Numbered from the stretch's first letter, positions 216 to 54,419 are shown. The stretch: 64,000 nt of DNA from Candidatus Magasanikbacteria bacterium RIFCSPHIGHO2_01_FULL_33_34 (GCA_001782825.1 MFPS01000003.1:44353-108352); one strand, 5' to 3'. A program made the numbers and translations. Notes: generated by a model not told the origin, from the sequence alone.

Positions 216-330
216 ATATAATTGGAATTATTATTCGCTCCCTGCCTGCCGGTAGGCAGGATTCTCGCTTTGGCTCCGAGGATGATGCTTATTGTAGCAT
301 CAAATCCGCTCATAATAATTCCAATTATAT
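216..330 (+). repeat. Nested-palindrome intergenic repeat, short variant with an extra inserted hairpin (copy a)
   Basis: The outer stem is ataattggaattattatt / aataataattccaattat. The core is gattctcgctttggctccgagg plus the hairpin gatgct-tattgt-agcatc. An inserted hairpin cctgcc...ggcagg lies at 241-260. Confidence 0.8.
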
Positions 331-365
331 TTAATATTACACATAGTTTAAATAGTTTATTATAT

Positions 366-773
366 ATGGCAGACAAATGTATTTTTTGTGGGATAGTAGG
401 GGGTGAAATTCCAAATCATACAGTATATGAGGATAGTATGGTTTTGGCTTTTTTGGATATATTTCCTCATGCCAAAGGTCATACAGTGGTGATACCAAAG
501 GATCATTTTGAATCTCTGTGGGATATGGACACAGACACATTTCAGTCAATTTTGGCTGGGGTACGCGCTACTGCTGGTCGTGTACAAGCTAGACTCAAGC
601 CGGATGGTATGAATATAGGTATCAATAATGGTAAAAGTGCAGGTCAAGTTGTACCGCATGTACATTGGCATATCATTCCGCGTTGGGAGGGGGATGGTGG
701 CGGTAGTATGCATAGTATTATTAAAAATCCAGGAGATAAAAGTGTTGATGAAATAGCAAAATTATTTAAATAA
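366..773 (+). CDS. HIT-family (histidine triad) nucleotide hydrolase
   Basis: MADKCIFCGIVGGEIP...HVHWHIIPR is the HIT motif. The ATG at 366 is the first start after the repeat, so the longer ORF from 222 is a read-through of the repeat. Confidence 0.85.
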   Translation: MADKCIFCGIVGGEIPNHTVYEDSMVLAFLDIFPHAKGHTVVIPKDHFESLWDMDTDTFQSILAGVRATAGRVQARLKPDGMNIGINNGKSAGQVVPHVHWHIIPRWEGDGGGSMHSIIKNPGDKSVDEIAKLFK

Positions 774-787
774 TATAAAGATATAAA

Positions 788-925
788 ATATAATAGCGTT
801 ATTTATACTTTTAATCATGACCGTATCAATTTGTTTATTTATTTTTACTCCCTGCCTGCCGGCAGACAGGATTCTCGCCTGCGGGCTCCGAGGTGTCGCC
901 TGTTGTGGCAACAAATCCGTAAAAA
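788..925 (+). repeat. Nested-palindrome intergenic repeat, long-type 5' module plus core with inserted hairpin (copy b)
   Basis: The 5' module is ataatagcgttatttatactttt... The core is ctccctgcctgccggcagacaggattctcgcctgcgggctccgagg plus the hairpin gtcgcc-tgttgt-ggcaac, then aaatccgtaaaaa. Confidence 0.75.
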
Positions 926-997
926 GAATACTTACCAAATAAATTAATAAAAAATCAAAACAAATATGTTTAGGTGTTTAAATATTTAAATGTTTAT

Positions 998-1999
998 ATG
1001 CAAATATTAGTATGTGGTGGTGCTGGTTTTATGGGCTCGCACTTTATAAAATATATATTAGAAAAATATCCAGATTACATGCTGGTAAATTTTGATAAAC
1101 TCACTTATGCGGGCAATTTGGAAAATTTGAAAGAAGTAGAAAATAATAAAAGATATAAATTTGTAAAAGGGGATATTTGTGATGCATCTGAAGTTGATAG
1201 AGTAGTCAGAGAAAATAAAATTGATACAATAGTAAATTATGCAGCAGAGACCCATGTTGATCGATCGGTTATGGACCCGTCTGCATTTTTGAAGACTAAT
1301 ATTTTTGGTTCATATAATTTATTAGAGGCGACAAAAAAATTTGATCTAAAAAAAATGGTTCAAGTTTCAACTGATGAAGTATTTGGAAGTATTGATAGTG
1401 GAAAGTTTCGTGAAGATTCACCATTTGAACCAAATAGTCCATATTCGGCTGCAAAGGCTGGTGGAGATTTGCTTTGCCGTTCGTATTTTGTTACTTTTCA
1501 AACGCCAGTGGTAGTGACACATAGTTGTAATTTTTATGGTTCAAATCAATATCCAGAAAAATTAATACCACTTTTTGTCACAAATTTGTTGGAAGGCAAA
1601 AAAGTACCGGTATATGGTGATGGTAAGCAGGTGCGTGAATGGATATATACGGAAGATCATTGTAATGCAATTGATGTGATTTTACATAAAGCAAAAGCTG
1701 GTAGTGTTTATAATATTGGATCAGGAGATGAAATTGAAAATATAGAAATTACAAAATTAATTTTGGAATATTTGGGTTATGATGAAAAAATGATAGAGTA
1801 TGTAAAAGATAGGCCAGGGCATGATAAACGTTATGCGCTTGATGCCAATAAATTAAAAAATGAATTAGGTTGGGAAGCAAAAGTTAATTTTAGAGATGGG
1901 TTGAAAAAAACCGTTGATTGGTATAGAGAAAATGAAGATTGGTGGAAAAAAATAAAAGATGGCAGTTATTTAGAATATTATAAAAAACAGTATAATTAA
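998..1999 (+). CDS. rfbB: dTDP-glucose 4,6-dehydratase
   Basis: MQILVCGGAGFMGSHF is a Rossmann GxxGxxG motif. YSAAKAGGD is the YxxxK catalytic motif. SDR-extended family features are conserved throughout. Confidence 0.88.
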   Translation: MQILVCGGAGFMGSHFIKYILEKYPDYMLVNFDKLTYAGNLENLKEVENNKRYKFVKGDICDASEVDRVVRENKIDTIVNYAAETHVDRSVMDPSAFLKTNIFGSYNLLEATKKFDLKKMVQVSTDEVFGSIDSGKFREDSPFEPNSPYSAAKAGGDLLCRSYFVTFQTPVVVTHSCNFYGSNQYPEKLIPLFVTNLLEGKKVPVYGDGKQVREWIYTEDHCNAIDVILHKAKAGSVYNIGSGDEIENIEITKLILEYLGYDEKMIEYVKDRPGHDKRYALDANKLKNELGWEAKVNFRDGLKKTVDWYRENEDWWKKIKDGSYLEYYKKQYN

Positions 2000-2001
2000 T
2001 T

Positions 2002-2089
2002 ATTAAAGATTATTATTTACTCATTCTCGCTGTGGCTCCGAGGTGTTTGCCTGTTGTGGCAAACAAATCCGTTCATAATAATCTTTAAT
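2002..2089 (+). repeat. Nested-palindrome intergenic repeat, short variant (copy c)
   Basis: The outer stem is attaaagattattat / ataataatctttaat. The core is ctcattctcgctgtggctccgagg. The hairpin is gtttgcc-tgttgt-ggcaaac. Confidence 0.85.
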
Positions 2090-2119
2090 AATTAATTTTT
2101 ACTATTCATTAATTAAAAT

Positions 2120-2956
2120 ATGAAAATATTAATAATTGGAAAGGGTTTTATTGGAGCTAGGTGTGCTGAAGTTTGGGGTGAGGAAGCTTTTGTTAGTGAC
2201 AAAATAATTGATTCAAAACAAGATGTTTTAGATTTGCTTGTTGAATATAATCCTGATGTAGTGTTGAATGCGGCTGGAGTTAGAGGGAAGCCAAATGTAG
2301 ATTGGTGTGAAACAAATCAAGAGGAGACAATATTGGGCAACACAAAACTCCCAATTATTATTGCCGAAGCTTGTCAAGAAAAAAATATTTATTTATTACA
2401 TATTGGTTCAGGTTGTATATTTTATGGAGAGTCTCCAGATCCAAAAGGTTGGAAGGAGTCAGATTTTGGCAATCCTATTCCAGTCTATTCAAGGTCTAAG
2501 TGGGCAGCAGATTTGGTACTTTCAACTTTGCCAAATGTTGGTATTGCTCGTATTCGTATGCCGATTGATTATATACCTTCACCAACTAATATGATTGATA
2601 AATTAGCGACTTTCCCAAAAGTGATTGATGTGGAAAATTCTGTTACTATTGTTGAAGATATGATTGATGTTTTTTATAAATTAATGGAAAAAAGAGCAGA
2701 AGGAATATTTCATGTTACAAATCCTGGTACTTTGAAACACAGAGAAATTATTGCATTGTATGAAGAGTTGGTTGATCCAAATCATAAAAATGAGTGGATA
2801 AGTAATGATGATTTGGTAGCTCAAGGTTTGGCAACAAAAGGTAGGTCAAATAATTTTTTACAATCAGAAAATTTAGAAAAACTTGGAATTAAAATGCGTC
2901 CTATTCATCAAGCAATGCGAGATACAATGGAGAAGTATGCAAAGTTAAAAAAGTAG
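2120..2956 (+). CDS. NAD-dependent sugar epimerase/reductase, RmlD-like (dTDP-4-dehydrorhamnose reductase family)
   Basis: The N-terminus has GKGFIG. NAAGV...VDWCE...LLHIGSGCIFYG parallels RmlD. It sits next to rfbB. Confidence 0.6.
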   Translation: MKILIIGKGFIGARCAEVWGEEAFVSDKIIDSKQDVLDLLVEYNPDVVLNAAGVRGKPNVDWCETNQEETILGNTKLPIIIAEACQEKNIYLLHIGSGCIFYGESPDPKGWKESDFGNPIPVYSRSKWAADLVLSTLPNVGIARIRMPIDYIPSPTNMIDKLATFPKVIDVENSVTIVEDMIDVFYKLMEKRAEGIFHVTNPGTLKHREIIALYEELVDPNHKNEWISNDDLVAQGLATKGRSNNFLQSENLEKLGIKMRPIHQAMRDTMEKYAKLKK

Positions 2957-2968
2957 TTTATAAATATT

Positions 2969-3739
2969 ATGGACTTGAGTATTATTACTGTAACTTGGAA
3001 TTCAGAAAAAAAAATTGAAAATCAGATTTTGTCTGTTATTTCTAGTTGTAGAAATATTACTTTTGAACAAATTATTATTGATAATAATTCACCTGATAAA
3101 ACTGTTGAAGTTGTTAAAAAATTTAATAATGTAAAATTAATTGAAAATAAAGAGAACAAAGGCTTTGGTGCGGCTAATAATCAAGGAATAGAAATTGCAT
3201 CGGGGAGATTTGTTTTATTTCTTAATCCTGATATGAAAGTTGAAGGGGATGCGCTTAATAGAATGGTAGATTATATGGTCCAAAATAGTAATGTTGGCAT
3301 TGCTGGGTGTAAATTATTAAATGAAAATGGGGAATTGAATTTGGCAACAACTCCAAGAAGATTTCCAAAATTGTGGGAACAATTATTTATTGTATTTAAA
3401 ATACATCATTTTTTGCCAAAAATTTTGGATAGATATTTATTTAGAGATTTTAATCCTGAGGTAGAACAAGAAGTAGATTCAGTCCAAGGTTCATTTATGA
3501 TTGTACGTCGTGAATTGATTGATAAACTTGGTTGGGGTTTTGACCCTAGATATTTTATTTGGTTTGAGGATGTAGACTTGTGTCGTGAAGCTAAGAAAAA
3601 TAGATATAAGGTAATGTATACACCAATTGCTACTTGTATTGATTATGCTGGACAAAGTTTTAAAAAAAGGACTACTTGGTGGAAACAAAAACAATACATA
3701 AAAAGTATGTTGAAATATTTTATTAAGTGGGGAGTATAA
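2969..3739 (+). CDS. Glycosyltransferase family 2
   Basis: ITVTWNS...IIIDNNSPD...GFGAANNQG is a GT2 (GT-A fold) signature with DxD. Confidence 0.8.
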   Translation: MDLSIITVTWNSEKKIENQILSVISSCRNITFEQIIIDNNSPDKTVEVVKKFNNVKLIENKENKGFGAANNQGIEIASGRFVLFLNPDMKVEGDALNRMVDYMVQNSNVGIAGCKLLNENGELNLATTPRRFPKLWEQLFIVFKIHHFLPKILDRYLFRDFNPEVEQEVDSVQGSFMIVRRELIDKLGWGFDPRYFIWFEDVDLCREAKKNRYKVMYTPIATCIDYAGQSFKKRTTWWKQKQYIKSMLKYFIKWGV

Positions 3740-3740
3740 T

Positions 3741-4754
3741 ATGGTTAAATTAACAGTGCAATTATTAGTTTGGAATGGAGAAAAATATCTTCCTCATCTT
3801 TTTGAGTCTTTGAGAAAGCAAACAAGTAAAGATTGGCAAATATTTATTTTGGATAATGGTTCTGCTGACAATTCTGTTTCGGTAATAAAAAAAGAATTAG
3901 CTAATTTTTCTATACCTAATTTTTTTGAAGAGGGAGAGTCAAATATTGGTTTTTCGCCTGGACATAATTATATTTATGAACAAACTGATACAGAGTATGT
4001 GTTGATGTTAAATCAAGATTTGTATTTGGAACCAAATTGTATTGAGCGATTAATTTCATTTATGGATAAAAATAGTGAGGTGGCTAGCGTGTCTCCTCGA
4101 CTTATGAAATGGAATATTAATTCACTTGATCACTTTTTTTCTGAGTATGTTGATTCATTGGGTTTAAAAGTGTTTAAAAATAGACGTGCGGTTGATTGGT
4201 ATAATGGTCAGAAGTATGAAAATTTTTTAAATACTAATAAGGATAAAAAAGAAATAGAAGTTTTTGGCGTATCTGGTACATTGCCGATGTTTAGGAGAAG
4301 TAATATAAATAGTATCTTATATGATAATAAATATATATTTGATCCAGATTATAGTTCTTACAAAGAAGATGTAGATTTGGCTTATCGTTTACGATCGGCT
4401 GGATTCAAGTCATATGTAGTTTTGGATACTTGCGCATATCATGATAGAACTAGTGATATAGAAATTACTGTAATAGATAATAAGAAAAAACAACCAGAAC
4501 ATGTAAAATATTATAGTTATAGGAATCATTTGATGACAATATATAAGAATGAATATTTACTAAATTTTATCCTTGATTTTTTTTGGATATTGTGGTATGA
4601 AGTAGGTAAATTTATTTGGTTTTTGTTATTTGATAGAAAGGTTTTAAAAGGTTTGGGAGATATATGGAAATTCAGAAAAAATTTGAAAAGTAGACGAAGA
4701 CAGATAATAAAACAAAGAAAAATAGGATGGTATAAAATTAGAACTTGGTTTTGA
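3741..4754 (+). CDS. Glycosyltransferase family 2
   Basis: QLLVWNGEKYL...ILDNGSADNS is GT2-like. It abuts the upstream GT2 with a 1-nt gap. Confidence 0.75.
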   Translation: MVKLTVQLLVWNGEKYLPHLFESLRKQTSKDWQIFILDNGSADNSVSVIKKELANFSIPNFFEEGESNIGFSPGHNYIYEQTDTEYVLMLNQDLYLEPNCIERLISFMDKNSEVASVSPRLMKWNINSLDHFFSEYVDSLGLKVFKNRRAVDWYNGQKYENFLNTNKDKKEIEVFGVSGTLPMFRRSNINSILYDNKYIFDPDYSSYKEDVDLAYRLRSAGFKSYVVLDTCAYHDRTSDIEITVIDNKKKQPEHVKYYSYRNHLMTIYKNEYLLNFILDFFWILWYEVGKFIWFLLFDRKVLKGLGDIWKFRKNLKSRRRQIIKQRKIGWYKIRTWF

Positions 4755-4770
4755 AAGTATTATTTAGTAT

Positions 4771-5613: not shown

Positions 5614-5627
5614 GTTTTATTTATAAG

Positions 5628-5797
5628 ATATAATAGCATTATTTATACTTTCAACCACGATTGCATTTTTTTCAATTATTTGTTTTTACTCATTCTCGCT
5701 TTGGCTCCGAGGGTGATGCCTGTTGGGGCATCAAATCCGTAAAAACAAATAATTGAAAATAATGCTTAATTATAAATAACGTTTTCAATTTTTACAC
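5628..5797 (+). repeat. Nested-palindrome intergenic repeat, long variant (copy d, reference copy)
   Basis: The 5' module is ataatagcattatttatactttcaaccacgattgcat. P1 is caattatttgtttttac / gtaaaaacaaataattg. The core is ctcattctcgctttggctccgagg. The hairpin is gatgcc-tgttgg-ggcatc. The 3' module is aataatgcttaattataaataacg. Confidence 0.9.
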
Positions 5798-5804
5798 TTT
5801 ATTT

Positions 5805-6905
5805 ATGGAAAAATATCCTAAAATTGCGATAATTTATTTATCATTTGATTCTGAACAATATTTGGATGATGTTGTTTCAGGACTCAAAAAAGTAAGTTAT
5901 CCAAAAGATAAGTTAGAGTTGGTTATAGTGGACAATCCACATCCAAAATATGGCTCATCTGTGAGAGCTATACAAGAAATTATTATGCCACATTCTGGTT
6001 TGGATTTGCCTCACGTTACACTTTTGCCACAAAAAGAAAATTTAGGTTTTGCTGGTGGAAATAATGTTGGTATACAATGGGCATTGGATAATAATTTTGA
6101 TTATATTTATCTTCATAATAATGATGGATTTACTTCAATCAATACTTTTGAATCACTTGCTAAAGTTATGGAGGAAGATAAAACTATAGCAGTGGCTCAA
6201 TCTTTATTACTTCTTCATCCAGATACAGAATATTTAAATAATGCAGGTAATTCTTTTCATTATCTTGGATTTGGTTATTGTGATAAATATAGAGAAAGAG
6301 TGGATGAAGTAAAATTGCCTCCAGTTATGGAGATTTCATATGCTAGTGGCGCTGCTTGTATTGTCAGATCAGATTTGATTAGAAAATACGGAATGCTTGA
6401 TCATGATTTCTTTTTGTATCATGAAGATTTGGAATGGTGTTTTCGTTTTAGGGTAGTTGGATACAAAACAGTTTTGGTGAGAGATTCTGTTTTTTACCAC
6501 AAGTATCAGTTTAGTCGTAGTATTGAAAAGTTTTATTATATGGAGAGAAATCGCTATGGTGTGATGTTGATGTTTTTCAAGCTTCCTTCTTTATTATTAC
6601 TTTTACCTATGGCAATAATTTTAGAGTTTGGTTTGTGGCTTTTTGCTTGGCGTGGTGGTTGGGTAGATAAAAGATTGGAAGTATATAAATATTGGTCAAA
6701 GCCAAATAATTGGAAATTGTGGTTGGGAAAAAGAAAAAATATTCAAACAATGAGAAAAATATCAGACAGAGAACTCTTTAAGTTCAGCGTTCCAGGTATA
6801 TATTTTCAAGAAAAATCTATGGAAAATCCAATTTTGAAATATATTGGAAATCCAGTAATGAAGATATATTATTGGATTGTGGTAAGAGGGATTATTTTTT
6901 GGTAA
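5805..6905 (+). CDS. Glycosyltransferase family 2 with a C-terminal membrane segment
   Basis: IAIIYLSFDSEQYL...VIVDNPHP, plus a hydrophobic C-terminal region. Confidence 0.7.
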   Translation: MEKYPKIAIIYLSFDSEQYLDDVVSGLKKVSYPKDKLELVIVDNPHPKYGSSVRAIQEIIMPHSGLDLPHVTLLPQKENLGFAGGNNVGIQWALDNNFDYIYLHNNDGFTSINTFESLAKVMEEDKTIAVAQSLLLLHPDTEYLNNAGNSFHYLGFGYCDKYRERVDEVKLPPVMEISYASGAACIVRSDLIRKYGMLDHDFFLYHEDLEWCFRFRVVGYKTVLVRDSVFYHKYQFSRSIEKFYYMERNRYGVMLMFFKLPSLLLLLPMAIILEFGLWLFAWRGGWVDKRLEVYKYWSKPNNWKLWLGKRKNIQTMRKISDRELFKFSVPGIYFQEKSMENPILKYIGNPVMKIYYWIVVRGIIFW

Positions 6906-6909
6906 AAAT

Positions 6910-7944: not shown

Positions 7945-7952
7945 TTTATTAG

Positions 7953-9287: not shown

Positions 9288-9355
9288 AATCAGAAATAAT
9301 TTGATTAAATTGCTAAATTTAGCTTAAAATAGCAGTATTGTATTTTTCATTATGT

Positions 9356-9384: not shown

Positions 9385-9443
9385 AAAAATCAACTATATT
9401 TGGTATTGATATATTTTTATATAGTTTGTATTAAAATATTAAA

Positions 9444-12064: not shown

Positions 12065-12430
12065 ATGGCAGAGTATTCGGTATCAGGAATTGTCGTAAAA
12101 GGAGATGGGTTAGCTAAAAATTTTGGTTATCCAACTGCGAATTTAGATATAAGTTTGGATAAGTTTGATTTAGCATCTGGTGTATATGCTTGTATTGCAT
12201 ATCTTGAAAACATTCAATATAATGCTGTTGCTATAATTAAAAGGAATGAAAGTAAATTTGAAGTACATTTGATTGGGTACGATGGATTAGATTTTTATAT
12301 GAAACAGGTGTCAATTAATTTACTTAGTAAAGTTAGTGATATTGAAAAGAAAGATGGGCAAGAATTGATTGATAAAATAGAAAGTGATATGAAAAAGGTA
12401 TTTGATTATTTTAGTCGTAAGATACAATAG
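12065..12430 (+). CDS. Riboflavin kinase (monofunctional, RibF C-terminal-domain-like)
   Basis: GIVVKGDGLAKNFGYPTANL and EVHLIGYDGLDFY match the riboflavin kinase domain. Confidence 0.7.
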   Translation: MAEYSVSGIVVKGDGLAKNFGYPTANLDISLDKFDLASGVYACIAYLENIQYNAVAIIKRNESKFEVHLIGYDGLDFYMKQVSINLLSKVSDIEKKDGQELIDKIESDMKKVFDYFSRKIQ

Positions 12431-12575
12431 CATTATTTATACTTTCAACTACGATCGCATTAATTACAATTATTTGTTTTTACTCATTCTCGCTGTGGCT
12501 CTGAGGTGATGCCTGTTGTGGCATCAAATCCGTAAAAACAAATAATTGTAATTAATGCTTTAAATTTTTACATTT
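12421..12575 (+). repeat. Nested-palindrome intergenic repeat, long variant (copy e)
   Basis: The 5' module overlaps the stop codon at 12428-12430. P1, the core ctcattctcgctgtggctctgagg, the hairpin gatgcc-tgttgt-ggcatc and the 3' module are all present. Confidence 0.9.
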
Positions 12576-15243: not shown

Positions 15244-15996
15244 TTATTTTAATATTTTTTGGATTGCTTCTTTGACTTTTTCAGAAAAACTTCCATTTAA
15301 AATCCACAATAGATAGCTTTTTTCTTTTTGAGCCAGTTCTTTTAGACTTCTACCTCTATTTTTTCCGAAATTTATTGTAAGTTCACCATCTATATATCTT
15401 AATTTTCCTTCCATATCATATTTGTCTGGGTCTTCTGGAAAACAAAAAGTATGTATTTCATCTACTGATGTTGGAAGATCATTATACATTTTCATTTGTC
15501 CTTCAAGCACGTCAATTGATGCTTTGATATCAGCAATAGCATTGTGGGCATTTTCAAATTCTCCGCCAACATATTTTTTGTATGCTGCTGCTAGAGTGCG
15601 TGGTTCTTTGAGTTTGAAAATAAGCATAGCATCTACTATTTTTCTATCCTCTACATCAAAAGGTAGTTCTATTCTACTAAATTCATTTTGGAGCATTGGT
15701 ATGTCAAAATAGCGAATATTATAACCACCTAAATCTGAATCAAGAAATAGTTGAGTTAGGTCTTGGGCAATATCTCCAAAAGTAGGTTTGTCTTTAACCA
15801 TTTCATTGGTTATGCCATGAATTTCCATTGCTTCGTCTGTAATCGGTATTTTGGGGTTTATTAGCCATTCATGTTCTGTTTTGCTACCATCTGGAAAATA
15901 TTTGATAGCGCCAATCTGAATAATCCTATCTTCAAATACATTGAGACCAGTGGCCTCTAGGTCAAAAAATACAATTGGTTTTATTATTTTTAGCAT
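15244..15996 (-). CDS. DEDD-family 3'-5' exonuclease (DnaQ/oligoribonuclease-like)
   Basis: VFFDLEATGL, IIQIGAI and ...HNAIADI are the Exo I-III motifs. Confidence 0.75.
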   Translation of the reverse strand: MLKIIKPIVFFDLEATGLNVFEDRIIQIGAIKYFPDGSKTEHEWLINPKIPITDEAMEIHGITNEMVKDKPTFGDIAQDLTQLFLDSDLGGYNIRYFDIPMLQNEFSRIELPFDVEDRKIVDAMLIFKLKEPRTLAAAYKKYVGGEFENAHNAIADIKASIDVLEGQMKMYNDLPTSVDEIHTFCFPEDPDKYDMEGKLRYIDGELTINFGKNRGRSLKELAQKEKSYLLWILNGSFSEKVKEAIQKILK

Positions 15997-16028
15997 AATT
16001 ATTATTTTAGAAGTAGTGTAAATTAATA

Positions 16029-16116
16029 ATTAGAGATTATTATTTGCTCATTCTCGCTTTAGCTCCGAGGAGGTTGCCGGTTGGGGCAACCTGATCCGCT
16101 CATAATAATCTCTAAT
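16029..16116 (+). repeat. Nested-palindrome intergenic repeat, short variant (copy f)
   Basis: The outer stem is attagagattattat / ataataatctctaat. The core is ctcattctcgctttagctccgagg. The hairpin is ggttgcc-ggttgg-ggcaacc. Confidence 0.85.
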
Positions 16117-16143
16117 TATTAATTCTATTTTAGATTATAAATT

Positions 16144-16313
16144 AATTTGTAAAATACAATAGCATTGTTTATACTTTTAACCATGACCGCATCAATTTCA
16201 ATTATTTGTTTTTACTCATTCTCGCCTCGGCTCCGAGGGTGATACCTGTTGGGGTATCAAATCCGTAAAAACAAATAATTGAAATTAATGCTTGCTTATA
16301 AACAATGTTTTTA
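16144..16313 (+). repeat. Nested-palindrome intergenic repeat, long variant (copy g)
   Basis: The 5' module has cattGtttat and the 3' module has ataaaCaatg, a compensatory pair relative to the other copies. The hairpin is gatacc-tgttgg-ggtatc. Confidence 0.9.
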
Positions 16314-16345
16314 ATTATTACAATTAATTTATACTACTCATCATT

Positions 16346-23335: not shown

Positions 23336-23350
23336 ACTGTAAAGTGTAAT

Positions 23351-23389
23351 AAAACAAAAACAACTCAAATAGTGAGCTGTTTTTGTTTT
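23351..23389. terminator. Bidirectional terminator hairpin between rpoD and the SOD-like gene
   Basis: aaaacaaaaacaactc ... gagctgtttttgtttt. Confidence 0.6.
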
Positions 23390-23425
23390 ATTGGGTATTT
23401 AAATACCAAATTAAATACTAATTTT

Positions 23426-26007: not shown

Positions 26008-27951
26008 ATGACCGCACCGCAACTCAGACAATCAAATCAAGTTGATAAGGCAAAAGAAGATATTTGTCTTTTTGGTCAAACAAATTATAGAAATCAATTG
26101 ACTAGGTTTGGTATCAAGACTGATGATAGGCGACGACATATGTACATCATAGGTAAAACTGGTATGGGAAAGACAACTATGATGGAAAATATGGTTTTGA
26201 ATGATATTTATAAAGGTCATGGTTTGGGGATAGTTGATCCTCATGGTGATTTTGCTGAAAAAATTATAGATTTTATCCCGTCTAGACGTATTAATGATGT
26301 GGTATATTTCAATCCATCAGACACTGATAATCCGATTGGTTTCAATATTTTGGAAGTTAGTGATGAAAAACAAAAGCATCTTGTGGCAGCTGGATTGATG
26401 GGAATATTCAAAAAGATTTGGCCAGATGCTTGGAGTTCAAGAATGGAATATATTTTGAATAATACTCTTTTGGCTTTGCTTGATTATCAAGGTTCAACAT
26501 TATTGGGTATAAACAGATTATTGGCAGACAAAAAATATCGCAAAAGAGTAGTAGCTCAATTGAAAGATCCGGTAGTAAAAGCTTTTTGGCAAAATGAATT
26601 TGCCAGTTATTCTGATAGGTATATGACTGAAGCGGTGGCACCTATTCAAAACAAGATTGGTCAATTTTTGTCAGCTAGTGTTATCAGAAATATGGTTGCC
26701 CAAGTCAAATCTACAATAAATATCAGGAGTATAATGGACAATCAAAAGATATTTATTATGAATTTATCAAAAGGAAGAATAGGTGAGGACAATAGCCGAT
26801 TGCTAGGTGGTATGCTTATAACCAAATTACAATTAGCAGCCATGGAGAGAGTAGATATGCCAGAAGAGGATAGAAAAGATTTCTTTTTGTATGTTGATGA
26901 GTTTCAAAATTTTGCTAATCCAAGTTTTGCGAATATTTTGTCAGAAGCTCGTAAATATAGATTGAGTTTGATTTTGGCGCATCAATATGTAAAACAGCTT
27001 GATGAGTTGGTAGCGGATGCTGTTTTTGGTAATGTCGGTACAATGATATCATTTCGAGTTGGTGGGCCAGATTCAGTAGAGCTTGTCAAAGAATTTACGC
27101 CAACTTTTTTGGAAGAAGATATGGTGAATTTACCAAAGTTTCAGATTTTTTTGAAATTGATGATTGATGGTGTGGCTTCGCGTCCATTTAGTGCTATGTC
27201 TATGCCTCCAATTGGTTCACCGACTGGTAGCAGAGAAAAGGTGATTAGGGTTTCACGTGAGCGATATTCTACAAACAAAAATGAAATAGAAGACAAAATT
27301 ACTCGTTGGAGTGGAATGGATTTGAATGAGCAGACTGATTCAAGTAACAATGAAAAAAAGAAGGATGATAATAAGCGTAGAGATGACAAACCAAATTATA
27401 AGCCAAAGAGTGGTAATAGTTTTGATAAAAAAGATAGTAGTGTTAGAAAAGATATGCCAAATAATCAAAAATCTTCAAATACAGAATTACCAAAAATAAA
27501 TACAGAAGAAATTAAAAAAGTGGAAGTGAATAAACCAATAGTTTTATCACAATTACAATCTAATAATCAAAATCAAGCTAATTTGGTTGAATTTTCTTCA
27601 AACAAAAGAAAGAGGCGAAGAAAGAAAAAAGGGCATAGCCATACTGATATTGCAATTGTTCAAAAATCAGAAATTATTCCTGTAGGGAGTTTAAAAACAG
27701 TTGAGGTTGTAAAAAATATACAAACAAGTACAAACAATAGGCCTAATATTTATCAGAATACAAATTATACAAAAGCTAGTGTTTCATTAGATGATAAAAA
27801 AAATAATCAAACTGTACAAAATATACCGCAACAAAGTTTGCAAGTTATTGCAAATAATAATGTTATAACAAATAAAAATAATGATGAAAAACCACCAAAT
27901 AATAATCAAACAAATTCTTTGGAAAAAGGTATTATAGTTAAATTTGATTAA
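26008..27951 (+). CDS. P-loop ATPase of the TraD/VirD4/HerA-FtsK-like superfamily with an N/K/Q-rich C-terminal tail
   Basis: Walker A is IIGKTGMGKTT. Walker B is FLYVDEFQNF. There is a conserved AHQ. The ~230-aa C-terminal tail is low-complexity. Confidence 0.55.
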   Translation: MTAPQLRQSNQVDKAKEDICLFGQTNYRNQLTRFGIKTDDRRRHMYIIGKTGMGKTTMMENMVLNDIYKGHGLGIVDPHGDFAEKIIDFIPSRRINDVVYFNPSDTDNPIGFNILEVSDEKQKHLVAAGLMGIFKKIWPDAWSSRMEYILNNTLLALLDYQGSTLLGINRLLADKKYRKRVVAQLKDPVVKAFWQNEFASYSDRYMTEAVAPIQNKIGQFLSASVIRNMVAQVKSTINIRSIMDNQKIFIMNLSKGRIGEDNSRLLGGMLITKLQLAAMERVDMPEEDRKDFFLYVDEFQNFANPSFANILSEARKYRLSLILAHQYVKQLDELVADAVFGNVGTMISFRVGGPDSVELVKEFTPTFLEEDMVNLPKFQIFLKLMIDGVASRPFSAMSMPPIGSPTGSREKVIRVSRERYSTNKNEIEDKITRWSGMDLNEQTDSSNNEKKKDDNKRRDDKPNYKPKSGNSFDKKDSSVRKDMPNNQKSSNTELPKINTEEIKKVEVNKPIVLSQLQSNNQNQANLVEFSSNKRKRRRKKKGHSHTDIAIVQKSEIIPVGSLKTVEVVKNIQTSTNNRPNIYQNTNYTKASVSLDDKKNNQTVQNIPQQSLQVIANNNVITNKNNDEKPPNNNQTNSLEKGIIVKFD

Positions 27952-30760: not shown

Positions 30761-31054
30761 ATGAACAATGACAGACAAATGTATAACGTTGATCTTAGCT
30801 GTGCAGAATGTAAAACAGCTATAACTCAACTTCCATTTGAACCAACAGGTGATAAGCCTGTATACTGTACTACTTGTTTGCGTGCTAGACGTGATTCAAG
30901 AGGTAATAGTAGAGATTCTCGCGGTCCAAGACAAATGTACCAGGTCAATGAAAAGTGTGCTGAATGTAATGCTGCTATTACACAGCTTCCTTTCCAACCA
31001 TCAGGTGGAAAACCTTTATACTGTTTTGATTGCGTAAAAGCAAGAAGACAATAA
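30761..31054 (+). CDS. Small protein with a tandem duplicated CxxC...CxxC zinc-ribbon module
   Basis: The two ~36-aa repeats are MYNVDLSCAECKTAITQLPFEPTGDKPVYCTTC and MYQVNEKCAECNAAITQLPFQPSGGKPLYCFDC. Confidence 0.65.
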   Translation: MNNDRQMYNVDLSCAECKTAITQLPFEPTGDKPVYCTTCLRARRDSRGNSRDSRGPRQMYQVNEKCAECNAAITQLPFQPSGGKPLYCFDCVKARRQ

Positions 31055-31063
31055 TATAAAATA

Positions 31064-31096
31064 AAAAATTCCCGATTTTACGGGAATTTTTTATTT
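31064..31096 (+). terminator. Rho-independent terminator
   Basis: aaaaattcccg-atttta-cgggaattttttatttt. Confidence 0.75.
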
Positions 31097-31109
31097 TATA
31101 GAATAAATA

Positions 31110-46107: not shown

Positions 46108-46114
46108 AATTATT

Positions 46115-46372
46115 TTATTTTTTATTATTACCCTTTTTCAGTTCATTAAAAACTTTTAGAAAATATTGAACATATAATTTATTCAATTCTTTGCAATCTT
46201 CAAAAGCTATTTTGGCCATTTGGGGACTTTGTTTACAACATCTGAAAATTGAGCTTTTTTTGGTATTAGCGTCTGGGATATCAGTTATTATTTGTAATGC
46301 AAGCTCTTGCCACTTGTATGCTGGTGGTTTTTTGAACTCTGGGATTTTTATTATGTCTTTGATGCTATCCAT
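46115..46372 (-). CDS. Small hypothetical protein (85 aa)
   Basis: No motif is recognised. It is co-oriented with def-fmt. Confidence 0.4.
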   Translation of the reverse strand: MDSIKDIIKIPEFKKPPAYKWQELALQIITDIPDANTKKSSIFRCCKQSPQMAKIAFEDCKELNKLYVQYFLKVFNELKKGNNKK

Positions 46373-46425
46373 ATGGCTTATTTCCTATGACTAGTCAAAA
46401 TACCATTTATTTGGGATTGTGTCAA

Positions 46426-47205: not shown

Positions 47206-47213
47206 AATATTAT

Positions 47214-49457: not shown

Positions 49458-49532
49458 ATAGTTTAATACGTTTTTTATATTGTAGCATAGTTTTTGTGAG
49501 AAAAAAAGCTGTTTTTTTATTATGTATTTATA

Positions 49533-49724
49533 GATTATATTAGTATTGTCTATATTTTTAATTATGATTGTACTAATTTTAATTATTTGTTTTTACTCTC
49601 TGCCTGTCGGCAGGCAGAATTATCGTTTTGGCTCCGAGGTGATTGCCTGTTGTGGCAATCAAATCCGTAAAAATAAATAATTGGAACTAATGCTTAATTA
49701 TAAATAATGTTTTTATTTTTTACA
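49533..49724 (+). repeat. Nested-palindrome intergenic repeat, long variant with an inserted hairpin (copy h)
   Basis: A divergent 5' module precedes P1. The inserted hairpin is ctgcctg-tcgg-caggcag. The core is cgttttggctccgagg. The hairpin is gattgcc-tgttgt-ggcaatc. The 3' module follows. Confidence 0.85.
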
Positions 49725-49753
49725 ATTTATTATTTTGATAATTTTTATAAAAC

Positions 49754-49779
49754 AATGAGGAGCATTTACGCCCCTCATT
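49754..49779 (-). terminator. Hairpin (aatgagg...cctcatt) downstream of the minus-strand lipoprotein gene
   Basis: The stem is 7 bp, and a T/A-rich tract follows on the minus strand. Confidence 0.45.
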
Positions 49780-49793
49780 AGTCGATATAATTT

Positions 49794-50387
49794 TTATTTT
49801 GGATTTTCTAGGTTCCATGTGTAGACAAAGCGAACTTGTTTTTTTTCTAATACCAATTCAATTTTGGTTGTATGAGGTGTGATAATATCACGGTCATATA
49901 TAGTGAGATGGGCTTTGCCAACAAAAACAGTGATAGAGGTAAGTGTTGTTGGATTTCGCTCAAACCCTTCAATCAGAATTGGATCTCCATACAAATTTCG
50001 TGCTATAACGCGTCTGCGTTGTATATCCCACATTCGCGTTATTGATTCTATCTTTCTTTTACTGCATTCAACCTCATACTTTTTTTTGTTTATTTTTACG
50101 TAGATGTTCCACCCACACGGATCAGCGTATTCACGCCATTTGTGAGTAATTTCTACTTTGAAATTGATGCGATCGCGAGAAACTACAATAAATTTTGCAT
50201 AATTTACTAGTTTGAAATTGTAAAGTTCGTGATCACCACGGATAATATTGAGTGTATGCGAATCTTTTATAAAATCTGGATTTGATGCATAAAAGATTGG
50301 ATTGGGTTGTTTTGTGGTTTTTGAAAAAGTTTTTGTACAAGCTGAAGCTAGTATTAAAATGATCAAATAAAAATTAAATTTCGACAT
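49794..50387 (-). CDS. Hypothetical lipoprotein
   Basis: The signal peptide carries the lipobox LASAC, and an AGGAG SD precedes the start. Confidence 0.55.
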   Translation of the reverse strand: MSKFNFYLIILILASACTKTFSKTTKQPNPIFYASNPDFIKDSHTLNIIRGDHELYNFKLVNYAKFIVVSRDRINFKVEITHKWREYADPCGWNIYVKINKKKYEVECSKRKIESITRMWDIQRRRVIARNLYGDPILIEGFERNPTTLTSITVFVGKAHLTIYDRDIITPHTTKIELVLEKKQVRFVYTWNLENPK

Positions 50388-50532
50388 CGTTACTCCTGTC
50401 GCAAAGTTTTGTTTGTGAAAGAGCAGTATAAAATATACTATATCTACTATATCACATATTTTAAATTTGTTTTATTAAGTCAATTTTGTATATTGATTTA
50501 TGAATATATATATGATAATCTAATCACACAAT

Positions 50533-51201
50533 ATGAATGGAATTTTATATATAATATCTACCCCAATTGGTAATTTGGGGGATATAACTTTGCGAGCTGT
50601 AGCTACCCTAAAAGAGGTTAGTTGTGTTTTTTGTGAAGATACTCGCGTTACCAAGAATTTGCTTAATCATTTTGATATAAAAACTCCTACAAAAAGCTTT
50701 CATCAGCATTCAGATAGATCAAAATATAATGAAATTTTGGAGATTTTACAAAAAGGTGATAGTGTCGCTCTAGTGTCTGATGCGGGTACTCCAGGTATTA
50801 GTGATCCAGGCAGTGAATTGATTGCTTATATTCAAAAAGCAAATAAAGACATAAATATTGTTCCTGTGCCAGGTGTATCAGCCGTTGTAACAGCATTGTC
50901 TGTGAGTGGTTTTCCAGTAGATAAATTTGTTTTTATGGGTTTTCCACCAAACAAAAACAAGCGTAAAAAGTATTTTACAGAAGTTGCAAACAATAAGTAT
51001 GCAACTGCTTTTTATGAGTCCAATCATAGGATAGAAAAAGCAATAAAAGAGTTAGTGGAAGTTTTGCCAGAGGATACTGAAGTATTCATTGCGCGTGAAT
51101 TAACAAAAAAATTTGAGAGTTTTTATAAAGGAAAAATAAAAGATATTAAAGATATTGTAGTACCAAACAAAGGAGAATTTGTAGTAATTATCAAAAAATA
51201 A
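50533..51201 (+). CDS. rsmI: 16S rRNA (cytidine1402-2'-O)-methyltransferase
   Basis: LYIISTPIGNLGDIT...FCEDTR is the tetrapyrrole-methylase-like RsmI signature. Confidence 0.85.
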   Translation: MNGILYIISTPIGNLGDITLRAVATLKEVSCVFCEDTRVTKNLLNHFDIKTPTKSFHQHSDRSKYNEILEILQKGDSVALVSDAGTPGISDPGSELIAYIQKANKDINIVPVPGVSAVVTALSVSGFPVDKFVFMGFPPNKNKRKKYFTEVANNKYATAFYESNHRIEKAIKELVEVLPEDTEVFIARELTKKFESFYKGKIKDIKDIVVPNKGEFVVIIKK

Positions 51202-51202
51202 T

Positions 51203-52717
51203 ATGTCAAAATTTTATATCACCACCACTTTGCCTTATGTAAATTCCAATCCACATATTGGTTTTGCATTAGAAATTATCCAAGCTGATGCGATTGTTCG
51301 TTTTCGTCGCTTACTGGGGGACGATGTTTTTTATAATACTGGTACTGATGAGCATGGTTTAAAAATTTTTAGAAAAGCCGAAGAGCAAGGGGTTCCACCA
51401 CAAGAATATACTGATGAATGGGCAGATAAATTTCGCAAGCTTGAAGGGTTACTTAATCTAGACCACCCAACTTTTATTCGGACTACTGACAAAAATCATG
51501 TTTTAGCTGCACAAGCATTTTGGAAGATTTGTCTAGATAATGGGGATATATACAAAAAAAATTATCAAGTTAAATATTGTGTTGGTTGTGAATTGGAAAA
51601 AACTGAATCAGAATTGGTTGAGAATAGGTGTGCAGTTCATCCATCCCAAGAGCTTGAATTGATTGATGAGGAAAATTATTTTTTTAGTTTTTCAAAATAT
51701 GAGAAAGCACTTTTGGAATATTATGAAAGTAATCCAGAATTTGTTATTCCAAATTATAGGTTCAATGAAATAAAGGAATTTGTAAAAAGTGGATTAGAAG
51801 ATTTTAGTATTTCAAGAATAAAAGAAAAAATGCCATGGGGAGTGCCAGTGCCAGGAGATGAACAACATGTGATGTATGTTTGGTTTGATGCTCTTATCAA
51901 TTATATTTCCACCCTTGGTTGGCCAGAAAATACTCAGAATTTTGAGGATTATTGGGGAACAAATAATAAACCTAATGCTATACAAGTCGCTGGCAAAGAT
52001 AATTTGCGTCAACAATCAGCTATGTGGCAGGCAATGCTTGCGTCCGCTAGATTGCCATTTTCTAAACAAGTGTTTATTCATGGCTTTATTACTTCAGAAG
52101 GAAAAAAGATGAGTAAAAGCGAAGGTAATGTCGTGGATCCTTATGAAACAGTAAAAAAATATGGGGTAGATGCAGTCAGGTATTATTTGCTTGGAGCTAT
52201 TCCACCTTATGATGATGGGGATTTTTCCATAGAAAGGTTTGAAGAATTTTATAATGCTCATTTAGCAAACGGAGTAGGGAATTTGACTAGTAGAATTTTG
52301 ACTATGGTTGAGAAATATAGTGATGGTAAAGTACCAGATACAGCTGATGATATTTTTGATACCAAAATATTTTGGATTGAATATGAGAGATTTTTCAATC
52401 AGTACAAATTTGATGAGGTAGTTAAACTTACACAAGAGTTGGTAGGTCGTGTTGATAAGACAATTTCTTCTGAAAAACCATGGGAAAAAGAAAAAAATGG
52501 TGAAAATATTTTACCTTTGCTTTATCAGTTGACTGAAGCTTTGCGACATATTGCGATTGCTCTTTTGCCGATTATTCCTAGTAGTGCTGAGCAAATATTG
52601 AATAAATTAGGTATTGACAAAGCTTCGTTTACTTCATTTGAACAAGAAAAAAAATGGCAAAAATTGCAAAAAGGTGTTACAGTAAATAAAGGTGAAGCAT
52701 TGTTTCCGCGTATATAA
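51203..52717 (+). CDS. metG: Methionine--tRNA ligase
   Basis: PYVNSNPHIGF is the HIGH region, and KMSKS is present. Confidence 0.92.
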   Translation: MSKFYITTTLPYVNSNPHIGFALEIIQADAIVRFRRLLGDDVFYNTGTDEHGLKIFRKAEEQGVPPQEYTDEWADKFRKLEGLLNLDHPTFIRTTDKNHVLAAQAFWKICLDNGDIYKKNYQVKYCVGCELEKTESELVENRCAVHPSQELELIDEENYFFSFSKYEKALLEYYESNPEFVIPNYRFNEIKEFVKSGLEDFSISRIKEKMPWGVPVPGDEQHVMYVWFDALINYISTLGWPENTQNFEDYWGTNNKPNAIQVAGKDNLRQQSAMWQAMLASARLPFSKQVFIHGFITSEGKKMSKSEGNVVDPYETVKKYGVDAVRYYLLGAIPPYDDGDFSIERFEEFYNAHLANGVGNLTSRILTMVEKYSDGKVPDTADDIFDTKIFWIEYERFFNQYKFDEVVKLTQELVGRVDKTISSEKPWEKEKNGENILPLLYQLTEALRHIAIALLPIIPSSAEQILNKLGIDKASFTSFEQEKKWQKLQKGVTVNKGEALFPRI

Positions 52718-52731
52718 AAATTGGAGGGGAA

Positions 52732-52896
52732 ATGGGTCCTCAAAAAGTTATAAAAGATGATAGATTTTGTGGTGAGTGTGAACTTACAGTTTTGCATTTA
52801 GTCGTTGTATTTGAAGTTGTACGAATAGAAATATGTTGTGTGTGTTATGGTGTAACTAGATATACTGTAGAAAAAACTAAAATTCCACCAAATTAA
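52732..52896 (+). CDS. Small Cys-rich ORF (54 aa): MGPQKVIKDDRFCGECELTVLHLVVVFEVVRIEICCVCYGVTRYTVEKTKIPPN
   Basis: A strong SD (GGAGGGG) sits 4 nt upstream. It carries a CxxC plus CCxC pair. It is under the track cutoff. Confidence 0.4.
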   Translation: MGPQKVIKDDRFCGECELTVLHLVVVFEVVRIEICCVCYGVTRYTVEKTKIPPN

Positions 52897-53057
52897 TACA
52901 AAATTGTATATACAAAAAAGTAAAAAAATTTTACAGAAAGTAAAAAATTGAAAAAAATAGATTCGTTCAAAAAACAAATTCGTGCTTCACCATAAAGGCT
53001 CTTGCAAAAGAGCCTTCGTCTATTTATAAGTTGTAAATTGTTTATAAAAAAAAGTTG

Positions 53058-53090
53058 CCGGCCCCGACGAATCGGGACCGGACTTGGCCG
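53058..53090 (-). terminator. GC-rich nested hairpin (ccggcc-cccga-cgaa-tcggg-...ggccgg) plus a T-run on the minus strand
   Basis: The palindromes are visible. On the minus strand they are followed by cttttttttat. Confidence 0.6.
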
Positions 53091-53102
53091 GAGGGCTGGG
53101 AG

Positions 53103-53270
53103 CTAGTCCCAGCGGACGGGTCGGTGGAAGAACTGTTCCTCCGTATCCGAGAACACCGGGAGAGGAGGCACCTCGATGCCGAACTCCTTCTCGGTCTTCT
53201 CCGCCAGTATGGCGAAGAAATTCTCCAGCATCTTCAGCGTCAAACCACCATACTTCTTGTTCGTTTCCAT
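53103..53270 (-). CDS. Small (55 aa) ORF inside a GC-rich islet: METNKKYGGLTLKMLENFFAILAEKTEKEFGIEVPPLPVFSDTEEQFFHRPVRWD
   Basis: The ATG at 53270 is preceded by GGGGGATAC. Third-position GC is about 78%. A GC-rich terminator follows. Confidence 0.55.
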   Translation of the reverse strand: METNKKYGGLTLKMLENFFAILAEKTEKEFGIEVPPLPVFSDTEEQFFHRPVRWD

Positions 53271-53459
53271 AGTATCCCCCGTGACTTGTCCCACTCTGAC
53301 GTTATTGTCAGTTGATGGGAACAATACAGTATAGCATATTTTAACACTTTTGTCAAGACCTATTTGGAGTAATTTAGCTAAAATAAGCAAAAAAATATAA
53401 ATTTATTTGGTGATTTTTATTGCCTAAATTATAGTTATAATGTAGTATTAATGTAATAT

Positions 53460-54305
53460 ATGTTATTAGATACTCATTGTCATTTACAGTTCAAAGGATT
53501 TGATGAAGATAGGGGAGATGTTATAAAACGCATTGCAGAAAAAGGCGTTGTTTTGAATATTGTTGGCACGCAAAAAAATACTAGTAAGTTGGCAGTTGAA
53601 TTGGCAGAAAAATATGAAAATTTTTATGCATCAATCGGTACTCATCCGGTCCATTTGTTTCCTAGTCATATAGATGAAGAAGAATCTAGTTTTAAATCTC
53701 GTGAAGAAGATTTTGATGAAGAATATTATGGTGAATTGGTCAAATCAAAGAAAGTGATTGCTATTGGGGAGACTGGACTAGAATTATATCATTTGCCCAA
53801 AGACAAAACAGTTGAAGAAGTTTTGAAAAAACAAAAAGAGGTGTTTGTGGCCCATATTAATTTTGCAAAAAAACATGATTTGCCATTGGTGATACATTGT
53901 CGTGAAGCGCATGAAGAAATGGCAAATTTATTGGAAAGTTTTGGTAGAAATATAAGGGGCACAATGCATTGTTTTACAGGCAATTGGGAACAAGCACAAA
54001 AATATTTGAAATTAGGATTGTATTTGGGTTTTACTGGTGTAGTTACTTTTCCACCCAAAAAAACCAATCCTCAACAACAAATTGATTTGCTGGAGGTTTT
54101 GGAGCGGGCTCCACTGGATAGAATAGTCGTAGAAACTGACTCGCCATATCTTGCTCCGCAAATTTGTCGGGGTAAACGATGTGAACCGTGGATGGTAGAG
54201 GAAGTTGTAAAAAAATTGGCAGAAATAAGAAAAATGGAGTATAAGGAAGTAGAGGATCAGGTGGCAAAAAATACCTTGGCTTTGTTTACTAGAATTAATG
54301 CTTAA
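53460..54305 (+). CDS. tatD: TatD-family metal-dependent hydrolase
   Basis: The N-terminus is MLLDTHCHL. Conserved H/E/D metal ligands are present. Confidence 0.85.
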   Translation: MLLDTHCHLQFKGFDEDRGDVIKRIAEKGVVLNIVGTQKNTSKLAVELAEKYENFYASIGTHPVHLFPSHIDEEESSFKSREEDFDEEYYGELVKSKKVIAIGETGLELYHLPKDKTVEEVLKKQKEVFVAHINFAKKHDLPLVIHCREAHEEMANLLESFGRNIRGTMHCFTGNWEQAQKYLKLGLYLGFTGVVTFPPKKTNPQQQIDLLEVLERAPLDRIVVETDSPYLAPQICRGKRCEPWMVEEVVKKLAEIRKMEYKEVEDQVAKNTLALFTRINA

Positions 54306-54316
54306 TTATAAATAGC
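54294..54316 (+). repeat. Fragment of the repeat 3' module (attaatgcttaattataaatag) overlapping the tatD stop codon
   Basis: It matches the 3' modules of copies d and h. Confidence 0.5.
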
Positions 54317-54351
54317 ACTTTTAATTCTCACGAATAAATTTAAAAATGAGT

Positions 54352-54380
54352 TGACAGCATAACGTTTTTGTAGTAAACTG
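54352..54380 (+). promoter_or_regulatory. Promoter (TTGACA-17-TAAACT) for the ATP synthase operon
   Basis: The hexamers lie about 40 nt upstream of the atpI-like start. Confidence 0.5.
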
Positions 54381-54395
54381 GAGGCATTTCATATT

Positions 54396-54419
54396 AATAA
54401 TTAGAGATTATTAATTAGC
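54396..54419 (+). repeat. Solo outer-stem fragment of the short repeat (ttaataattagagattattaattag)
   Basis: It matches the 5' arm of copy f over 21 nt, and no core is present. Confidence 0.5.

Follow-up and report, generated by a model that had tools for sequence, protein, structure and literature searches.

A mosaic, MITE-like family of nested palindromes around a conserved core in a Candidatus Magasanikbacteria genome

Known small intergenic repeats of bacteria include the Correia elements (CREE/NEMIS) of Neisseria, which duplicate the dinucleotide TA, and the ERIC, BOX and BIME repeats, whose size variants arise by internal insertions. In mRNAs that contain a Correia element the long hairpin is cleaved by RNase III, and inversion of the element has been reported; ERIC sequences have an RNase E effect on mRNA that depends on their orientation (PMC10969869). 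[quoted passage not shown] Here we analysed 64,000 nt of Candidatus Magasanikbacteria bacterium RIFCSPHIGHO2_01_FULL_33_34 (GCA_001782825.1, MFPS01000003.1:44353-108352), hereafter the window, which is AT-rich (~32% G+C) with a GC skew that is positive over its entire length. Homologues of its Era, RfbD and DnaK assign the organism to Candidatus Magasanikbacteria, in the Patescibacteria/CPR. An earlier note, made from the sequence alone, had described in the window a family of nested palindromes. We found a long form, in which ~25-nt terminal inverted repeats enclose a second perfect palindrome (P1) capped by an asymmetric core, and a short form consisting of the core between other arms. With slightly better than even confidence, we explain the whole as a mosaic non-autonomous MITE-like family with a co-transcribed, cis-acting core.

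Like the Correia elements, these are non-coding elements of MITE type, of 100-200 nt, with terminal inverted repeats and a target duplication; they are intergenic, often just upstream of genes, carry sigma-70-like hexamers in their ends and would form a long hairpin if co-transcribed. Unlike them, they duplicate 9 bp and share no sequence similarity with Correia elements, whose middle is an IHF site and which have no asymmetric three-way-junction core, recurring across phyla, within a second perfect palindrome. As in the ERIC/IRU, BOX and BIME mosaics, intergenic imperfect palindromes are built from interchangeable modules, which are here the terminal repeats, the P1 types, the core and an optional 20-nt palindrome. 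However, ERIC, BOX and REP have no clear 9-bp duplications, occur in narrow taxa and conserve a palindrome, not an asymmetric centre. A REP is moreover an imperfect palindrome of 20-40 nt that makes no target duplication and needs a GTAG-type head and a RAYT gene; neither was seen here (for RAYT, in the window), the elements do have duplications, and a scan of window open reading frames (ORFs) gave no Y1/HUH gene. One would expect drift inside a type II MITE, whereas here the core is the most conserved part and is also found without these terminal repeats. Between the two classes proposed in the earlier note, a structured non-coding RNA or a REP/BIME/ERIC/BOX-like element, the latter is the closer; the note's view that the element could not be classified gives way before the MITE hallmarks described below.

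That the long form is a miniature non-autonomous transposable element is firmly supported: terminal repeats, 9-bp duplications and presence or absence at orthologous sites show that it was inserted as DNA. The conserved 5' and 3' parts, previously taken for separate modules, are both present but are imperfect inverted versions of each other, ~25 nt long, and 9-bp direct repeats lie on their outer sides. These terminal repeats, GTAAGA..GCRTTRTTTATA (ending TTTATA) and TATAAAYAAYG..TTAC, have the inward consensus GTAAGAATWAYAAGCGTTGTTTATA, with GTAAGAATTACAAGCGTTGTTTATA as ends, and are common to the window, to a relative with 91% Era identity (L062) and to a group of Magasanikbacteria loci described below as family A. 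The target-site duplication is exact at copy 7 (AATTAATTT) and in L062 (AATTGATTT), which carries an element where the window has a single AATTGATTT, that is, an empty site. Copy 4 is flanked by the 9-bp duplication TTTATTTAT, with boundaries offset by 1-2 nt, and its site is empty in L065, where the spacer is 15 nt. Moreover, the spacer between Era and RNase T, which holds copies 6 and 7, measures 349 nt in the window versus 11 nt in L063 and L064. The solo ends at 54292 and 54396 are decay products. Short (below ~300 bp), non-coding and multi-copy, with terminal inverted repeats, a 9-bp duplication, and both empty and filled sites, the element has the features by which prokaryotic MITEs are recognised; such classical features had been named in advance as evidence against an unassigned class, and it is in the long form that we find them. 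The short forms have no terminal repeats, their only inverted repeats being the arms themselves, and in relatives the corresponding spacers are filled by different palindromes, with no empty site readable there.

As the earlier note had already stated, no transposase, integrase or Cas gene was found among the window ORFs scanned against Pfam, and the same scan found no HUH/Y1 gene; the genes that flank copies in other organisms are housekeeping genes. With no partner gene among the ORFs scanned, the mobilising enzyme presumably acts in trans. The GTAAG start of the ends resembles that of the IS66 family, which makes 8-bp duplications, and we take this as a lead, not a result. The sole gene related to mobile DNA or DNA transfer among the ORFs scanned is a 647-aa ORF (26008-27951) with a TrwB/type IV coupling-protein DNA-binding domain (E 1.2e-14).

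All eight copies counted in the earlier note were found in place, every one on the + strand (Table 1). The pattern TCTCGC-N3-8-GCTCCGAGG has 6 matches in the window, with 0.00 expected from shuffles, and the two remaining copies depart from it at 1-3 positions. For a covariance model we took eight sequences, namely five copies of the window, the one in L062 and two of family A; it recovered exactly the 8 copies, with E values from 1.7e-23 to 2.8e-6, and gave no further match in the whole window at E<=1. The elements are non-coding and 88-190 nt in size, and the window total is 8 copies plus 2 fragments. Both fragments proved to be genuine leftovers: the right end of a long form (54292-54331), which overlaps the 3' end of a tatD-like gene (53460-54305), and the left arm of a short form (54396-54416), directly upstream of an ATG at 54423. 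Two other assemblies, L061 (ENA ERZ27254759) and L070 (ERZ4903185), carry the same elements at the same sites with 99.97% identity to the window; since these assemblies are independent, an assembly artefact, a concern raised at the outset, is excluded. Both represent the same strain as the window, and no strain polymorphism was found between them and it. Two genes end within an element, rfbB in the left arm of copy 3 (stop codon 1997-1999) and ribF in the left terminal repeat of copy 5 (stop codon 12428-12430), so that the insertions replaced the last few codons of both proteins; RfbB has 341 aa in the window versus 322-335 aa in relatives.

Table 1. Copies and fragments of the repeat family in the window, with their component parts (positions counted from the first letter of the window)
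Feature	Coordinates	Strand	Terminal repeats	P1 or arms	Core	Score (bits)	Remarks
Copy 1, short form	211..335	+		211-234 / 312-335, 24 bp, 100% complementary	239-307	47.1	extra 20-nt palindrome inside core, 241-260
Copy 2, decayed long form	778..929	+	left 778-807	5'-arm remnant 837-848; 3' remnant 919-929	849-918	32.4	extra palindrome 851-870; right arm and right terminal repeat lost
Copy 3, short form	1994..2097	+		1994-2016 / 2075-2097	2021-2070	83.2
Copy 4, complete long form	5616..5806	+	5624-5647 / 5771-5795	5663-5689 / 5739-5765	5690-5738	89.6	direct repeat at 5616-5624 and 5798-5806
Copy 5, long form	12417..12571	+	left 12417-12441; truncated right 12559-12571	12457-12483 / 12532-12558, 27 bp, perfect	12484-12531, GCTCTGAGG variant	78.7	flanking 9-mers ATTTTAGTC / ATTTTAATT, 6/9 identical
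Copy 6, short form	16003..16134	+		16021-16043 / 16102-16124, 23 bp, perfect	16048-16097, UGAUCC variant	77.4	9-bp direct repeat TATTTTAGA nearby, 16003-16011 and 16126-16134
Copy 7, complete long form	16140..16330	+	16149-16173 / 16297-16321	16189-16215 / 16265-16291	16216-16264	84.6	9-bp duplication at 16140-16148 and 16322-16330
Copy 8, degenerate long form	49530..49723	+	49530-49554 / 49699-49723	49570-49596 / 49667-49693, several transition mismatches	49597-49666	50.7	extra palindrome 49599-49618; TTATCGT replaces TTCTCGC in core
Solo right end of long form	54292..54331	+	right			 	~40 nt: end of P1' plus right terminal repeat
Solo left arm of short form	54396..54416	+		ATTAATAATTAGAGATTATTA			20/21 identical to 16022-16042

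The arms of P1 form a perfect inverted repeat, closed in every case by a C-G pair; P1 measures 27 bp in long forms (not 17, as first described), 23-24 bp in short forms and 17-27 bp over the family as a whole. It is capped by the core, which is asymmetric and ~50 nt long. The 5' junction UC-AUU and the 3' junction (A)AAUCC are both invariant, and the AUU of the former can pair with the AAU of the latter. Between them stand two hairpins, P2 and P3, joined by a linker of 0-3 nt. P2 is the invariant (U)CUC-GC-loop-GC-UCC-GAG(G), in which UCC is a 3-nt bulge; the conserved blocks TCTCGC-N-GCTCCGAGG had been seen before, but not that they form a hairpin of their own with such a bulge. Naturally extended forms of this hairpin, with GCC-UGCG-GGC in copy 2 and with GCAGCC-UAU-GGCUGC in L049, set the register of its distal GC/GC pairs. 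P3 is a hairpin of 5-10 bp that is free to vary in sequence, length and loop while its complementarity is kept. Three copies (at 216, 788 and 49533) have in addition a perfect 20-nt palindrome, CCTGCCTGCCGGCAGGCAGG, between CUC and AUU. This is an independent GC-rich module, present also in L065 (10987-11006) and L066 (2051-2070); it is inserted without duplication in the window cores and, in a relative, lies within an unrelated palindromic element.

Pairing was counted in a model-fitted alignment of 27 distinct sequences, with shuffles and slid partners as controls. Complementary bases fill 93.9% of the cells, versus 65.7% in shuffles and 35-44% when the partners are slid, and double-sided changes number 112 versus 32±4 in shuffles (0 of 500 as high). 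Covariation is seen at all 15 pairs of P1 and P3, P2 being practically invariant. These counts support the original description of a conserved core within variable yet complementary stems. One-sided changes of the G·U type are found in only 6 of 441 cells. Overall divergence among the window copies is 10-14%, with the core blocks kept and the changes in P1 and P3 compensated. The scarcity of G·U pairs, which shows no strand bias, points to a DNA-level process that keeps the stems Watson-Crick: correction or conversion from arm to arm would explain the perfect 27-bp stems, the many double changes and the few wobble pairs.

Several readings of the core were tried and rejected. A small ORF through it (LILALAPR in the window, 52 codons in L050) has its frame shifted by the P2 loop, of 3-11 nt, and by the length of P3, while the nucleotide blocks stay fixed. 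A kink-turn on the reverse strand (C-stem, 3-nt loop, tandem G·A) loses the required G·A pairs in the L062 variant GCTGCGAGG and in L050a; a plain helix with a 3-nt bulge accommodates all copies. An apparent compensatory change in P2 of L050a is a C·C pair, hence not compensatory. Finally, the reverse strand had been considered as the RNA strand because of lower folding energies in the Desulfobacteraceae copies, and was discarded since transitions giving G·U number 29 versus 34 per strand.

The core was also searched by a three-block exact pattern, in one genome scan and one metagenome scan. Most matches were chance ones in GC-rich coding DNA; the others were loci in which P1 and P3, not part of the pattern, were also paired. 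Family A comprises copies from L016, L020, L023, L028, L035 (two), L045 and L052 (45% G+C; a second species, also Magasanikbacteria by DnaK), with window-type terminal repeats, an identical core and wholly different P1 arms (AGCCAATGGTTGTCCTTTTCGC): the 25 conserved nucleotides of the core blocks do not differ between family A and the window, whereas their P1 arms cannot be aligned. Such a pattern argues for purifying selection on the sequence of the core, P1 being presumably selected or corrected for pairing only. Family B (L018, L029, L041, L049 and L050; soda-lake sediment, ~50% G+C) has other arms and other outer repeats. Its units are often paired, 165-180 nt apart (L050 1926-2146, L029 1286-1522, L049 204-440), with a conserved spacer (GGTATTTTCAGGTGAAACGTCCATGAGTATATACTCACAAAAAGGCATGAAAAT) and a diverged partner copy (AAACCC, longer P3, extended P2). 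A further copy, in L043, lies between glycosyltransferase genes. The syntenic sequence of nearer relatives of the window organism (12-21 kb; 80-86% protein identity) is free of copies.

Single copies, whose arms are unrelated, as are those in L043, were found in more distant bacteria. The metagenome-assembled genomes (MAGs) L010, L012 and L013, of Desulfobacteraceae/Desulforegulaceae, carry one at a single orthologous locus, with a histidine kinase on one side and a sigma-54 regulator on the other. Taken in the direction in which we write the motif, this copy (L010 6040-6109; also L012, L013 and L031) is antisense; GGAG-N11-AUG within the core opens, on the gene strand, a 19-codon ORF whose stop overlaps the start of the regulator (TAATG). 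In a Paceibacteria MAG (L014), a copy at 334-393 lies between smpB and the tmRNA gene (411-794), 18 nt upstream of the latter, with its reverse strand co-directional with both. In addition, a GC-rich non-coding metagenomic locus (L004, titled Dehalococcoidales; L015, L019, L021 at 4474-4518, L048, L051, L054 and L057) has a P2 hairpin UCUCGC-UUC-GCUCCGAGG, followed by four UCCGA and then tandem CCACTTCACG units; its architecture is different, and it matches neither the covariance model nor Rfam.

The core is directional with respect to both its frame and its surroundings. A long form of the window starts with a terminal repeat and a 15-nt spacer, continues with P1, core and P1', and ends with a 5-nt spacer and the second terminal repeat; in L062 and in L045/L016 the side with the long spacer is on the opposite side of the same core strand. 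Judged by this arrangement, the core has been inverted inside its frame more than once, and recombination between the P1 repeats would produce exactly such flips. Of 20 independent spacers, ~16 have the core strand, as written in the earlier note, running the same way as the genes on both sides, and in 29 of 30 instances it is the G-rich strand; for the window alone the counts are 5/8 and 8/8. A strand-specific constraint acts on the core, whether set by transcription or by replication.

These observations support an inner cassette (P1 plus core) that is selected and modular, occurring in several frames, in which the terminal repeats and the 20-nt palindrome may each be present or absent. As we picture the family, a DDE-type transposase supplied in trans would make 9-bp staggered cuts, as the length of the duplication suggests, and move terminal repeats within which P1 surrounds the asymmetric core as a portable cassette; short forms would be the same cassette with other arms and no terminal repeats. 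The core would fold, through P2, P3 and the junctions UCAUU and AAAUCC, into a three-way junction or a two-hairpin structure. Mismatch correction or conversion between the arms of an extruded or single-stranded hairpin may keep the stems Watson-Crick, and the P1 repeats may let the core flip within its frame. Co-transcribed in the sense orientation, the element would give a long double-stranded hairpin capped by the junction, and this could serve operon mRNAs as a cis-acting processing, stability or protein-binding module, with double-stranded P1 as an RNase III-type substrate or as a barrier and the junction as a recognition cap, in the manner reported for Correia and ERIC elements (PMC10969869). 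That the core acts as such a cis-acting RNA module in read-through operon transcripts is a tentative proposal, to which we give somewhat less than even weight.

Several findings weigh against this explanation. No transposase with these terminal repeats was found in the window ORFs (Pfam scan) or in any fetched locus, and a clear flanking duplication is lacking at copies 5 and 8 as well as at copies 1 and 3, both of the short form. G·U pairs are rare and strand-symmetric, with counts of 4 and 5 per strand for the core helices and of 29 and 34 for the long arms, so that the stems give no positive sign of selection at the RNA level. The promoter-like hexamers of the terminal repeats are not above shuffles (6 versus 2.5±1.4; 4 versus 2.5±1.5), and a scan for intrinsic terminators found none. 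Finally, three window copies (in two spacers) run antisense to the adjacent genes, as do those of Desulfobacteraceae and Paceibacteria, and since gene strand is confounded with GC skew, the orientation bias could reflect replication instead.

Some of these points suit other explanations better. The core could be a folded single-stranded DNA or cruciform signal on the lagging-strand template, read by the enzyme that mobilises the element or by a DNA enzyme of the host, with P1, P3 and the bulged P2 as DNA structures, in the logic of IS200/IS605 ends, attC sites and T-shaped hairpin termini. Stems that are essentially Watson-Crick only and without strand asymmetry would fit this, as would perfect stems of 23-27 bp, far beyond the needs of an RNA motif, the location of all eight window cores, including the three antisense ones, on the G-rich strand, here the lagging-strand template, and a core conservation that travels with the element across hosts. 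Yet neither terminal inverted repeats nor 9-bp duplications are products of the known single-strand transposases and integron integrases, the window ORFs scanned showed no HUH/Y1 or integrase gene, and GC skew on short contigs is confounded with the coding strand. P2 is unlike P3, whereas the left and right hairpins of IS200/IS605 resemble each other, and with its terminal repeats and 9-bp duplications the element also differs from the IS200/IS605-derived PATEs. Integron attC sites are marked by R''/R' boxes (RYYYAAC ... GTTRRRY), of which none was seen in the sequences read, and the conservation is reversed, the tip of our element being conserved and its base variable. On this evidence we consider a DNA signal improbable, roughly a one-in-five prospect. 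A wholly selfish family, in which core conservation reflects the recent horizontal spread of one master and perfect stems reflect youth, is the least credible of the alternatives. It would account for the many copies, some decayed, for the solo ends, for relatives at 80-85% protein identity that lack the elements, and for the unrelated palindromes in the same spacers of relatives, which imply fast turnover. Against it, core blocks are kept and P1/P3 changes compensated at 10-14% divergence, the core is identical in family A beside unalignable P1 arms, a copy has been kept at one orthologous locus in three species-level MAGs of Desulfobacteraceae, and core orientation is non-random.

Alternatively, core and P1 might be a small structured RNA in its own right, be it a gene, a new class of self-cleaving ribozyme or a sponge for protein, that is carried and spread by MITE frames, whose terminal repeats would supply inward promoters. 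Indeed, both terminal repeats read inward as TTGTAA-N17-TATAAT/TATACT, and the core resembles small three-way-junction ribozymes and riboswitch aptamers in having a closing helix and two hairpins, invariant unpaired junctions, variable stems and an optional stem, as well as a patchy multi-copy distribution; its conservation across phyla, and the single copies at conserved loci in Desulfobacteraceae and beside tmRNA in the Paceibacteria MAG, would also be in keeping with such an RNA. However, the promoter score is not above background and short forms have no promoter module, G·U pairs are missing from the stems, it is ambiguous which strand would be functional, and the reverse-strand kink-turn is broken in L062 and L050a. 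Neither do the junctions UCAUU, G(RU) and AAAUCC fit any consensus known to us; in a comparison by eye, hammerhead, HDV-like and twister ribozymes, a sigma-54 promoter, CIRCE, an IHF site, attC and dif all failed to fit. Rfam 15, with its hammerhead, twister, pistol, hatchet, HDV-like and 6S families, gave no match at gathering thresholds in the window and 12 loci, in line with the earlier note, which had recognised no known motif, and at E<=10 (15990-16340) the only matches were to spurious long-hairpin miRNA models. We therefore rate an independent RNA as a poor prospect, between the DNA signal and the selfish family. Rather less improbable than any of these three, though still unlikely, is that the core is a previously undescribed structured nucleic-acid motif, shared across phyla and with a function of its own, which unrelated palindromic carriers captured and amplified in Patescibacteria, Desulfobacterota and other bacteria; it could be a small new ribozyme, a binding site for a conserved protein or a recombination signal in folded DNA.

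Searches elsewhere yielded little. BLAST against plasmids and phages returned AT-rich noise and one spurious match inside a Caballeronia coding region, and the two matches from a scan of viral contigs lie in GC-rich coding DNA and are due to chance. The literature, searched by topic and by sequence words, yielded nothing that describes this element.

Other palindromes are frequent in this lineage. Relatives have different, species-specific long palindromes at the same spacers (rfbB-rfbD, HIT-rfbB and Era-RNase T), at L062 4573-4725, L065 10850-11044, L067 9808-10000 and 8670-8799, L068 9872-10000 and 8709-8902, and L069 1390-1546 and 298-387. Their arms consist of short periodic motifs, e.g. 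CGTAATC/GATTACG, ACGCTAAT and CACCTTA, and each begins directly where the last conserved codons end. In this lineage, intergenic hairpin elements seem subject to very rapid turnover. Unrelated to the repeat family, two 20-bp inverted repeats in the window resemble bidirectional terminators: TATAAAATAAAAAATTCCCG / CGGGAATTTTTTATTTTATA (31055-31100) and AATAAAACAAAAACAACTCA / TGAGCTGTTTTTGTTTTATT (23348-23392), 100% and 95% complementary, respectively, with loops of 5-6 nt. A 96-nt direct repeat of 74% identity (30773-30868 and 30929-31024) gives a duplicated peptide module in a small ORF (30761-31054).

As a mobile element, the family is a MITE/ERIC/Correia-like mosaic and so of a known kind, its core being possibly a novel structured module. 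Mobile DNA is considered scarce in the very small genomes of the candidate phyla radiation (CPR/Patescibacteria), and here seven copies of an active-looking MITE family lie within one 16-kb stretch of such a genome. The usual logic of a MITE is inverted in them: the interior is conserved and the arms drift, and that interior, which is absent from Rfam, recurs in distant phyla. If the core has an activity of its own, it would represent a new class of motif; if it has none, the family would be a clean natural case of a DNA palindrome maintained from arm to arm and of modular MITE evolution.

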